Positions 28,035-29,420 of a stretch of 64,000 nt of DNA are shown in pieces. Each line of letters opens with the position of its first letter. Positions within the stretch are counted from its first letter, which is position 1. Position numbers and translations under genes: made by a program. A model generated the notes under the pieces. It did not search any database. It had not been told where the DNA came from and was given only the letters and a program-made list of their open reading frames with translations. The DNA is taken from assembly GCA_016432365.1 (NCBI GenBank), contig CP066686.1:355-64354 (forward strand). The letters run 5' to 3'. The DNA comes from Candidatus Woesebacteria bacterium (lineage in GTDB: Bacteria; Patescibacteriota; Microgenomatia; UBA8517).

Positions 28035-28454
28035 TTACTTATCCCCTGAAGAACACACACTACCAGACTTACATCGATATCTTTGTACATCATCAGGAAG
28101 TGTGTGTCCGCCGCAACAAACTCTATTTGGTACGTAACAAGCTCCGTCCCTAATACAAGGTAGACCACCCCCACCACCCGTTCCACCACCACCGGGAGGA
28201 GGTGTTGCAGTTCCACCACCACCAGTTTTGACACAAGTTCCACAAGTTGCGTTGCTACACTTATATCCGGTTTGGCAACCGTTGTATTGGTCACACTCAC
28301 ATTCCCTGGCCTTTTCGTTTATGTTAAAAGAATAATTACTAACCACAAACAGCGCTACGAAGATCAATGTGATTACCAAAAGTAATATTGTAGATAAACT
28401 AAGGAGATGTGTGAGACTTAATTTCTGAAAGCTTTTAGATTTCTTTGTGGCCAC
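28035..28454 (-). CDS. Cysteine-rich secreted/membrane-anchored protein, paralog family member 1
   Basis: A basic N-terminus plus TM anchor, then AREC-ECDQY.GC.TGYKCSNATCGTCVK, then a Gly/Pro linker, then a C-rich knot (CIRDGACYVPNRVCCGGH...). Confidence 0.6.
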   Translation of the reverse strand: MATKKSKSFQKLSLTHLLSLSTILLLVITLIFVALFVVSNYSFNINEKARECECDQYNGCQTGYKCSNATCGTCVKTGGGGTATPPPGGGGTGGGGGLPCIRDGACYVPNRVCCGGHTLPDDVQRYRCKSGSVCSSGDK

Positions 28455-28533
28455 AATTTAATTTAGTGTAGACAACGACTCGTGTCAATCCCTTTCAATG
28501 GTAGTTCGCGTTACTAAGTGAGGCCACTCAAAC

Positions 28534-29073
28534 TTATTTATTTCTTGAAGCACACACATTACCTGTACTACACACTTTTCCGGTTCCAAAGTCAGAAACA
28601 TAGTATCCGCTGCAACAAGGTTTGTTCAGCTGAGCGCAAGCACCATTCGCAATACATGTACTTCCACTGGGTTTGGCCGCACAAGAGTTGCCGGTACTAC
28701 ACACCTTACCCGTCACAGTATCAGAAAGATAATATCCGCTGCAGCAATTTCTACCCGGTTGGGTACAAGAGCCATTGCCAATACAGTTTGTTCCACCGCC
28801 TCCACCACCTGTTCCACCACCACCGGGGGGAGGAGTCGAAGTGCCACCGCCGGAAACTTTAACACAAGAACCGCAAGTGGCATTACTACACTTGTAGTTG
28901 GTTCCACAATTGGTATATTGATCGCATTCACAGTCTCTGGCTTGATTGTTTAACTTAGTAACTTCATTACGCGCCAAAAAGACCGCAGCTCCAAAAAGTG
29001 AAAGAAGTAAGAAAGCAACTACAACTAATGCAGAAATTAACTTTTTATTTGATTTTCCTTTTTTATATGCCAT
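28534..29073 (-). CDS. Cysteine-rich secreted/membrane-anchored protein, paralog 2, with two C-terminal Cys-rich repeats
   Basis: Same N-module (ARDCECDQYTNCGTNYKCSNATCGSCVK) and PPPGGGGTGGGGG linker as paralog 1. It carries two repeats, C(I)xNGxCxQxxxxCCSGYY(L/V)SD..GKVCSTGN.CA. Confidence 0.65.
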   Translation of the reverse strand: MAYKKGKSNKKLISALVVVAFLLLSLFGAAVFLARNEVTKLNNQARDCECDQYTNCGTNYKCSNATCGSCVKVSGGGTSTPPPGGGGTGGGGGGTNCIGNGSCTQPGRNCCSGYYLSDTVTGKVCSTGNSCAAKPSGSTCIANGACAQLNKPCCSGYYVSDFGTGKVCSTGNVCASRNK

Positions 29074-29081
29074 TTATAAAT

Positions 29082-29420
29082 TTACTTACACCTCATTCCC
29101 GTAGCACAAAAACCATCTGAGAACGATTCACCGCAGCATGGAGTCCTTGGCTGCGAACATTTACCTCGAATGCACTGACCGGCAGTTCCAACGCAAGTCC
29201 CACAATATTGATCACTGCACTTCTGGTTCCTTTTACACTTTAAGTTCGTATTACTGCCGCATTCGCATCCTCTCGCTTGATTGTCAACATTCACAGTCTG
29301 GTTACGCGATAAAAACATTGAAGCACCGACAAGAGACAGTAATAAAACAATTACAACTACTAAAGCCCACATTAGACTTTTGTTAACTTTTTTTGTTTTA
29401 ATTTTACTCTTGGTCGCCAT
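29082..29420 (-). CDS. Cysteine-rich secreted/membrane-anchored protein, paralog 3 (shorter)
   Basis: A basic N-terminus plus TM, then ARGCECGSNTNLKCK..C..YCGTCV...CIRGKCSQPRTPCCGES. Confidence 0.55.
   Translation of the reverse strand: MATKSKIKTKKVNKSLMWALVVVIVLLLSLVGASMFLSRNQTVNVDNQARGCECGSNTNLKCKRNQKCSDQYCGTCVGTAGQCIRGKCSQPRTPCCGESFSDGFCATGMRCK

Follow-up and report, generated by a model that had tools for sequence, protein, structure and literature searches.

The stretch analysed here, hereafter the window, comprises 64,000 nucleotides from the genome of a Candidatus Woesebacteria bacterium (assembly GCA_016432365.1, contig CP066686.1, positions 355 to 64,354 of the forward strand). Between the major type IV prepilin gene pilA and a SpoU methylase gene, it carries a tandem trio of minus-strand genes for cysteine-rich proteins which, judged by sequence, belong to a rare and previously undescribed Woesebacteria family, in which a conserved N-terminal anchor and first cysteine module are joined to a distal part that varies between relatives. 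Numbered by order of transcription, these are paralog 1 (29082..29420; 112 aa, ATG start, 12 Cys), paralog 2 (28534..29073; 179 aa, ATG start, 18 Cys) and paralog 3 (28035..28454; 139 aa, GTG start, 12 Cys). The database entries, on a 1.08-Mb contig of a metagenome-assembled genome, carry the locus tags HYV90_00200 and HYV90_00205 and are annotated only as 'hypothetical protein'. A first, sequence-only reading had described three consecutive paralogous genes at this position, each encoding a basic N-terminus and one hydrophobic helix followed by a conserved cysteine module and, in two of them, a PPPGGGGTGGGGG linker, and placed them after the pilA terminator; this description is borne out in all these respects. 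What it missed is the existence of the family outside this genome, its mosaic evolution, with anchor and module 1 conserved and the distal module swapped, and a DsbA-like gene as recurrent neighbour.

Each of the three proteins begins with 4-6 lysine or arginine residues and no acidic residue within the first 11-15 positions, followed by an apolar run of 23-24 residues with a mean Kyte-Doolittle hydropathy of 2.8-3.1 over 19 residues (the anchor: residues 15-38, 29307..29378, in paralog 1; residues 12-34, 28972..29040, in paralog 2; residues 17-39, 28338..28406, in paralog 3). A juxtamembrane segment of 12-13 residues ending in Ala-Arg leads into the six-cysteine module 1, xCECDQYxxCxTxYKCSNATCG[TS]CV, which spans C52-C76 (29193..29267) in paralog 1, where it is more diverged, C48-C70 (28864..28932) in paralog 2 and C52-C74 (28233..28301) in paralog 3. 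In paralogs 2 and 3 module 1 is followed by a Gly/Pro linker of the form (G)GGT[SA]TPPPGGGGTGGGGG (28786..28863 and 28158..28232 respectively). Beyond it lies a distal six-cysteine module with the spacing C-x4-5-C-x6-CC-x8-13-C-x5-C, present in two CCSGYY copies in paralog 2 (C97-C131, 28681..28785; C140-C174, 28552..28656), as one divergent copy in paralog 3 (C100-C134, 28053..28157) and as one shortened copy in paralog 1 (C83-C111, 29088..29174) that is fused straight onto module 1 without a Gly linker. The second cysteine module had at first been assigned to two of the paralogs only; all three proteins in fact carry one, and it is the CCSGYY form that occurs twice, in the 179-aa protein.

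Only 8 nt separate the stop codon of paralog 1 from the start of paralog 2, so these two genes are probably co-transcribed. A promoter-like site on the same strand, TTGACA-17-AATACT (29429..29457), lies upstream of paralog 1 and is sigma-70-like by consensus match only, and a second one, TTGACA-17-TAAATT (28460..28488, minus), lies upstream of paralog 3. Upstream of the trio, pilA (29581..30039, minus) encodes a major prepilin with the motif KG↓FTLIELLV, a PF07963 match (E 1.6e-9) and two cysteines in its C-terminal region, and is separated from the trio by a terminator-like hairpin on the minus strand, GCCGCCC-GTA-GGGCGGT followed by T8 (29542..29558). A 114-aa open reading frame rich in His, Cys and Tyr runs antisense across paralog 2 (28518..28862, plus) and probably arises only from the Gly/Cys-rich codons of the opposite strand.

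Within the window the paralogs match one another in tblastn searches with E values of 1e-7 to 1e-23, and no further protein resembling them was found in the 64 kb. Searches of Pfam, NCBIfam and the PDB sequences with full proteins and isolated modules returned nothing above threshold, the PDB matches being Gly-linker artefacts against the linkers of single-chain antibody fragments (scFv), and no description of the family was found in the literature. A word-indexed search of 5.8 billion clusters recovered only the query and paralog 3, and 1.84 billion representatives scanned exhaustively with HMMER gave 11 matches, comprising the three paralogs, six true homologs (P0004, P0006-P0009 and P0011), P0005 and P0010. 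Of the last two, P0005 is a 2,177-aa protocadherin-like eukaryotic protein and a false positive of transmembrane and low-complexity sequence, and P0010, which has only the Gly/Pro linker and some cysteines in common with the trio, is not a member. All six true homologs have the tail, apolar helix and juxtamembrane segment together with the motif A[KR]xCECDQ..C..GY.CSN.TCGTCV, while the part downstream differs each time. A scan of 185,579 species genomes added a single genome, that of Woesebacteria GW2011_GWB1_39_10 (locus L009), and a metagenome scan at the Joint Genome Institute (JGI) recovered only loci already found, with L010 probably representing the L009 contig in its JGI record. P0016 and P0018 were added by a search that started from a neighbour in locus L002 with the same leader. 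In total there are about 15 relatives among billions of proteins, and every named source is Candidatus Woesebacteria.

The family is defined here by a basic tail, an apolar helix of 19-24 residues, a segment of 12-17 residues ending in A[KR], and the spacing C-x-C-x5-C-x5-C-x4-C-x2-C, with A[KR]xCECDQYNxCGxGYxCSNxTCGTCV as the consensus of module 1. The full motif is present in the three window proteins, P0004, P0006, P0008, P0009 and the L009 ortholog of paralog 3, and is found without the first and sixth cysteines in P0007 and P0011; homologs at no fewer than seven other loci keep the cysteine positions. Family proteins range from 110 to 440 aa, cysteine makes up 11-20% of the ectodomain, and the linkers take the forms PPPGGGGTGGGGG, PKPKTSPKPKVSPKP or TPAPQKTPTPAPAKTP.

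The closest comparison is provided by L009, whose flanking genes are 73-78% identical to those of the window in DNA and are arranged likewise, with pilA followed by a terminator, a single Cys-rich gene and, on the opposite strand, the SpoU methylase gene. The lone Cys-rich gene there is an intact positional ortholog of paralog 3 and also keeps its GTG start, and upstream of it TTGACA and most of the second hexamer are preserved; paralogs 1 and 2 have no counterpart at this locus. Across tail, transmembrane helix, module 1 and linker the two orthologs are 90% identical in protein, with 0.058 non-synonymous substitutions per site (dN) and a ratio to the synonymous rate (dN/dS) of 0.057, a constraint equal to that on the best-conserved minor pilin of the nearby cluster. 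DNA identity runs at 80% to the end of the Gly linker and is then lost: the distal module of L009 is a different sequence, C-x6-C-x4-CC-x5-C-x9-C, unalignable and with a distal dN of 0.77. The pilin itself (29581..30039 in the window, 7285..7755 in L009) is a mosaic of the same kind, with a conserved, buried N-terminus and a variable, exposed C-terminus: between the two genomes identity is 100% over residues 1-50 and 64% over the C-terminal 100 residues, where synonymous sites are saturated and DNA similarity can no longer be detected.

Nei-Gojobori comparison of the three paralogs gives saturated synonymous differences (pS 0.60-0.81), non-synonymous differences (pN) of 0.30-0.42 and dN/dS of 0.14-0.33, while the two CCSGYY repeats within paralog 2 give a dN/dS of 0.09. 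Since synonymous sites are saturated and dN/dS lies between 0.09 and 0.33, the duplications are old and the copies constrained by purifying selection, as the sequence-only reading had supposed. Its companion claim, that divergence is mostly synonymous, stands when counted per site but not in absolute numbers, where non-synonymous differences exceed synonymous ones at amino-acid identities of 36-56%. As the paralogs differ from one another (dN 0.19-0.70) far more than paralog 3 does from its L009 ortholog (dN 0.06), the duplication is probably older than the split between the two genomes, and paralogs 1 and 2 may have been lost in L009 or gained in the window genome by recombination. Recombination is also suggested by the mosaic affinities of paralog 2, whose leader is nearest to paralog 1 (59% v 37%) and whose module 1 is nearest to paralog 3 (77% v 54%).

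More distant loci extend this pattern. At L001 a single copy begins 2 nt after the pilin stop codon. L002 shows the same frame as the window, with thioredoxin, thioredoxin-reductase, DsbA and HD-domain genes at one end and SpoU at the other, and holds no pilus genes there and four tandem family genes instead; these have a near-identical leader, MK.KSLH.K..F.KF.SLAILVLGASVGVILATQKSTVFDESEA, followed by module 1 in one of the four and by other Cys-rich modules in the rest. In L014 two family-type genes directly follow the thioredoxin, thioredoxin-reductase and DsbA genes. L012, on the same 180-kb contig as L002, encodes P0018, which has the paralog-3-like juxtamembrane motif FFNINEKA and two C-x6-C-x5-CC-x4-C-x4/7-C modules. 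In the paralogs of L002, L012 and L014, one leader is kept and the cysteine modules differ. The comparisons among L009, L001, L002, L014 and L012 and within the window point to tandem duplication and module exchange on a conserved N-terminal chassis. P0018 (L012 8001..10647) lies about 25 kb from the four-gene array of L002 and has a Fic-domain gene and an rve-family integrase/transposase in its vicinity, a hint at mobilisation or rearrangement of family copies. The neighbours of the long members P0008 and P0009 (L007 and L008) have Pro/Thr-rich stalks and, at the C-terminus, hydrophobic tails like those of sorting signals; in these predicted surface proteins (L007 1..1374 and 2703..3176; L008 2..658) motifs such as …TGNLTPT and …LPQSGTD precede the hydrophobic tail and are reminiscent of sortase-type signals.

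The apolar run measures 19-24 residues in all 12 family members examined, with a net charge of +2 to +6 on its N-terminal side and of -2 to +3 on its C-terminal side, and is separated from the first cysteine by 12-17 residues, usually 12-13. An apolar segment of at least about 19 residues together with a positive-inside bias is what characterizes a signal anchor, and the positive-inside rule is an established guide to membrane topology; the charge bias across the 12 members therefore places the Cys-rich part outside the cell, with a predicted N-in/C-out topology. In P0008 and P0009 the helix is preceded by a Pro-rich extension (MPNQ…PQADLPPLPPxFQ) of ~125 and ~60 residues respectively, conserved between the two, and must there be an internal signal anchor rather than a cleavable N-terminal signal peptide, and by homology to these two proteins the window proteins would likewise keep an uncleaved anchor.

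Cysteine number is even (10, 12, 18 or 20) in each of the 10 complete members counted, and in P0007 and P0011 Cys1 and Cys6 of module 1 are both missing while Cys2-5 are retained, which suggests a Cys1-Cys6 bond in this module. The even counts, the paired loss and a neighbouring DsbA-like gene, with a DsbD_2 protein also encoded in the window, favour disulfides over free thiols or metal clusters, and the Cys-rich part, predicted to be extracytoplasmic, is most likely disulfide-bonded. The DsbA-like oxidoreductase is the most recurrent neighbour of the family: a transmembrane-anchored form is found 0.1-8 kb from family genes at four loci, arranged in three ways across the window, L001, L002 and L014, and has the active site CPYC in the window and CPAC in L001. 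We propose this enzyme as a candidate oxidant of both the cysteine modules and the pilin. In the window its gene (37771..38580, minus) stands beside that of a thioredoxin-reductase-like flavoprotein (38638..39597, minus), and an HD-domain protein is encoded at 36840..37655. Further along are a Cu-type P-ATPase with an HMA domain (40415..42535) and a DsbD_2/CcdA-type membrane thiol-reductant transporter fused to a cupredoxin-like domain (42851..44005, plus), the fusion being further evidence for a putative extracytoplasmic thiol-disulfide system in this organism. This redox/metal block is conserved (window 37771..44005, L002 1..4831, L014 2194..4559), and in both L002 and L014 thioredoxin, thioredoxin-reductase and DsbA genes, in that order, stand immediately before the Cys-rich array.

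The interpretation that we tentatively prefer, and to which we assign slightly less than an even chance, is that the trio serve for surface display, being type II-anchored, oxidised by DsbA and tipped with a binding part that evolves fast. In this view a rare Woesebacteria family of membrane proteins, bitopic and of type II (N-in/C-out), would have expanded in tandem in this particular lineage; its members would be inserted in a Sec-dependent manner and their ectodomains then oxidised by the membrane-anchored DsbA-like enzyme of the syntenic block. The strongly conserved membrane-proximal module would contain three disulfides, and the usual flexible Gly/Pro/Thr-rich stalk would keep the distal modules away from the membrane, where these small, stable heads may bind a partner cell, a cell-wall polymer or another external ligand. 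Rapid turnover of the distal modules would then result from selection acting on the cell surface, the variable C-terminal half of the pilin being a parallel case. Several observations weigh against this interpretation. AlphaFold2 gave a mean predicted local distance difference test (pLDDT) score of only 56.9 for full-length paralog 1 (3 sequences) and 48.6 for its ectodomain (9 sequences), and a Foldseek comparison of the second model with the PDB had a best E of 2. Small-residue (-3,-1) sites that fit signal peptidase I occur in or just after every apolar segment, and the ectodomains are mostly cationic (+2 to +6 in the trio), as would suit antimicrobial peptides too. The abrupt change from conserved leader to variable sequence (…EA↓ or …A[KR]↓) could mark a site of processing and not one of recombination, and the proximity of DsbA may in part mirror conserved gene order in a narrow clade. 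The binding function and its ligand are, moreover, read purely from the architecture.

The same cleavage sites, positive charge and fast-evolving distal modules would be expected if the proteins were released as cysteine-stabilised effectors, that is bacteriocin, defensin or knottin-like toxins, whose basic and hydrophobic N-terminus would be a long signal of Gram-positive type or a pre-pro leader, cut by signal peptidase or by another protease at the conserved juxtamembrane A-[K/R] or E-A, and whose cationic product diffuses to competitor or host cells, the arrays mirroring the venom-peptide gene families of animals. This is the main rival and we regard it as unlikely, albeit deserving of serious consideration. 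It draws on L002, L014 and L012, where near-identical leaders give way abruptly, at …ESEA or …NEKA, to Cys-rich parts that diverge, and on weak sub-threshold Pfam matches of the full proteins to AtDEF-like (18.6 bits, cut-off 25) and YxzE-like bacteriocin (PF25184, 15-17 bits, cut-off 40) models; these matches, however, take in the transmembrane helix and vanish with isolated modules, for which the best match is Defensin-like at E 1.3. Apolar runs of 19-24 residues have the length of an anchor rather than of the 7-15-residue h-regions typical of signal peptides, and the conserved extension of 60-125 residues ahead of the helix in P0008 and P0009 is hard to reconcile with a cleaved leader. It is likewise unusual for diffusible peptides to have long Gly/Pro/Thr stalks or ectodomains with several modules and up to ~300 residues, and it is the membrane-proximal module 1 that is most conserved (dN/dS 0.06), whereas the pro-region of a toxin family is dispensable. 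Nor is there an immunity gene, an ABC exporter or a C39 peptidase beside the trio. The related idea of precursors of ribosomally synthesized and post-translationally modified peptides was set aside, as neither a radical-SAM enzyme nor any other maturase is found near the trio. A more far-reaching proposal, that Woesebacteria make genuine cystine-knot mini-domains diversified in the manner of venoms, with one conserved pre-pro leader for export, processing at N-x-N-E-K-A-[K/R] or E-S-E-A, and tandem arrays of hypervariable, module-shuffled knots that are oxidised by DsbA and, as effectors, released or displayed against the cells on which these bacteria depend or with which they compete, seems to us improbable; if correct, it would to our knowledge describe the first knottin effector repertoire in bacteria.

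That the proteins might be accessories of the type IV pilus, acting in assembly, capping or regulation or as pilin co-receptors and co-expressed through their position after pilA, appears quite improbable. A member does lie directly downstream of the major pilin gene in the window, L009 and L001, with a 2-nt gap in L001 that implies an operon, and pilin and Cys-rich proteins would both need disulfide formation. However, adjacency to pilA is confined to this one subclade; L002 has its four paralogs in the slot between DsbA-HD and SpoU, and L014 its two after DsbA, without adjacent pilus genes, and none were found in the available DNA of L005-L008 and L012. It is on account of the loci without pilus genes (L002, L014) that the pilus-operon idea is downgraded. 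In the window and L009 the terminator-like hairpin and separate promoter-like sites part pilA from the Cys-rich genes, and a copy number of 1 to 4 is atypical for a stoichiometric part of a machine. The trio also lack a prepilin motif and match neither PilN, PilO nor any other pilus family. The step from gene position to a pilus-related role is weak. An extracytoplasmic role in binding Cu or Zn through cysteine thiolates, as a tethered metallothionein-like buffer tied to the nearby copper P-type ATPase, is suggested by the high cysteine content of the ectodomains with their CxC, CxxC and CC motifs, by the HMA P-type ATPase and cupredoxin-fused DsbD_2 found 11-15 kb away in the window, and by the same ATPase upstream of the L002 array. 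We consider it highly improbable: even cysteine counts and the paired loss of Cys1 and Cys6 are expected of disulfides and not of thiolate clusters, the modules contain conserved aromatics (GY.C, CCSGYY) and almost no His, and the site is extracytoplasmic and beside a DsbA-type oxidase, the ATPase not being adjacent to the trio. Homology to an intracellular metal-binding family, which the sequence-only reading had raised as an objection to itself, does not emerge, there being no match to any metallothionein or copper-storage family. Finally, the annotation as hypothetical proteins and the lack of a known domain could be taken to indicate spurious or decaying reading frames without function, a notion effectively refuted by dN/dS values of 0.06-0.33 with saturated synonymous sites, by the intact positional ortholog in L009, where the neighbouring genes have diverged to 73-78% DNA identity, and by the retention of cysteine positions across loci.

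The preferred surface-display architecture can be set against several known systems. The distal modules of paralogs 1-3, the L009 ortholog, P0004, P0007 and P0018 conform to the C-C-CC-C-C six-cysteine framework of knottins or inhibitor cystine knots (ICK), which is permissive, so that the fit is weak evidence. The knottin fold further comprises a small triple-stranded antiparallel β-sheet and the disulfide connectivity I-IV, II-V, III-VI that ties the knot; the AlphaFold2 models that bear on it are of low confidence. With the knottins of spiders, cone snails, plants and fungi they share distal modules of 30-40 residues spaced C-x5-6-C-x4-7-CC-x4-13-C-x5-11-C, and a conserved leader ahead of a hypervariable cysteine-framed module in tandem gene arrays. 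Unlike knottins, however, the modules of the trio are the C-terminal parts of membrane-anchored, multi-module bacterial proteins and not free secreted peptides, and no Pfam family of knottins or toxins matches the sequences of the trio. None of the knottin, defensin, hevein or bacteriocin Pfam models reaches threshold; of the knottin/defensin-like cysteine spacing noted at first, the knottin-type spacing of the distal modules is borne out. The distal module also bears a superficial likeness to the motif C..G.C…P…CCS.Y…C of hevein-like chitin-binding peptides such as Ac-AMP2. Homology to hevein/CBM18 proteins, whose eight-Cys (or truncated six-Cys) motif includes CCS-x-[WY]-G-[WY]-CG, was rejected, with no PF00187 match to the isolated modules at E<=10 and an hhalign probability of 2% against a hevein-like alignment; the trio module has six cysteines where hevein has eight, and the spacing of the Ser/aromatic triad differs.

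Large Cys-rich proteins, predicted to be extracellular or membrane-associated, have been proposed to act in attachment in Peregrinibacteria of the candidate phyla radiation (CPR), where they contribute to differences between strains (Anantharaman et al., 2016; PMC4736985). The trio family resembles them in its CPR origin, cysteine content, predicted location, proposed part in attachment and variation between strains, and differs in its size, its 11-20% Cys ectodomain and its combination of a transmembrane helix with a CECDQ module, without detectable homology. The modular surface proteins of monoderm bacteria span the wall with Pro/Gly/Thr-rich stalks. They too combine an anchor, a low-complexity spacer and a variable distal domain, and some relatives of the trio sit among surface proteins; the anchor here is, however, an N-terminal signal-anchor helix in place of a C-terminal LPXTG/sortase signal or a lipid, and the heads are predicted to be tiny and disulfide-rich in contrast to Ig-like or β-rich domains. 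Type IV pilins are similar in having a short basic leader before a hydrophobic helix, a conserved N-terminus with a fast-evolving, disulfide-containing C-terminus, and, in this clade, adjoining genes. The identification of the trio as pilins was nevertheless rejected: PF07963 is absent from all three and present in pilA and the minor pilins, the prepilin peptidase motif (G↓F/M…E5) is missing, and there is no relation between the globular parts.

CPR bacteria are thought to be attached to or dependent on other cells, and few of their surface molecules beyond pili are understood. The family described here is a compact candidate for such a molecule, with a conserved anchor showing tiny disulfide-rich heads that are swapped between close relatives. 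If these heads bind the surface of a host or partner, they would help to explain the partner specificity of Woesebacteria, and if they are true cystine knots, that fold class would be extended to bacteria and offer display-ready hyperstable scaffolds. Its present importance is modest, as the family is very narrow (~15 proteins in billions).

The pilus clusters contain two further conserved proteins. A 597-aa protein kept in all three pilus loci (window 31847..33640, minus; L001 2071..3933; L009 3804..5615) has a prepilin-like N-terminus (KGQLLVELLVAFG), a GGGGSGGG stretch, a conserved C-terminal domain and, as its only Pfam match, the LVIVD (β-propeller) repeat; it looks like a pilin-fused tip adhesin, possibly with a PilY1-like role. 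Between the minor pilins and pilA lies a conserved protein of 212-225 aa with a C-terminal transmembrane helix and no Pfam match (window 30195..30872, minus; L009 6540..7217; L001 4757..5395), which by its position could be a lineage-specific PilM/PilN-like assembly component. Elsewhere in the window, a 93-nt tRNA-Arg(TCT) called by ARAGORN at 39798..39890 (plus) and not by Rfam contains a GGCATTACYGG-type repeat, resembles repetitive coding or low-complexity DNA and is in all probability not a true tRNA. At the window start a bacterial 16S rRNA gene is cut off, leaving its 5' 410 nt (1..410, minus; 373.9 bits), a stretch that would allow exact taxonomic placement, and the minus strand also encodes an 820-aa DUF3160 protein (18156..20618), an ATP-dependent DNA ligase of archaeal/eukaryotic type (51438..53138) and a Fic-domain protein (53726..54790).

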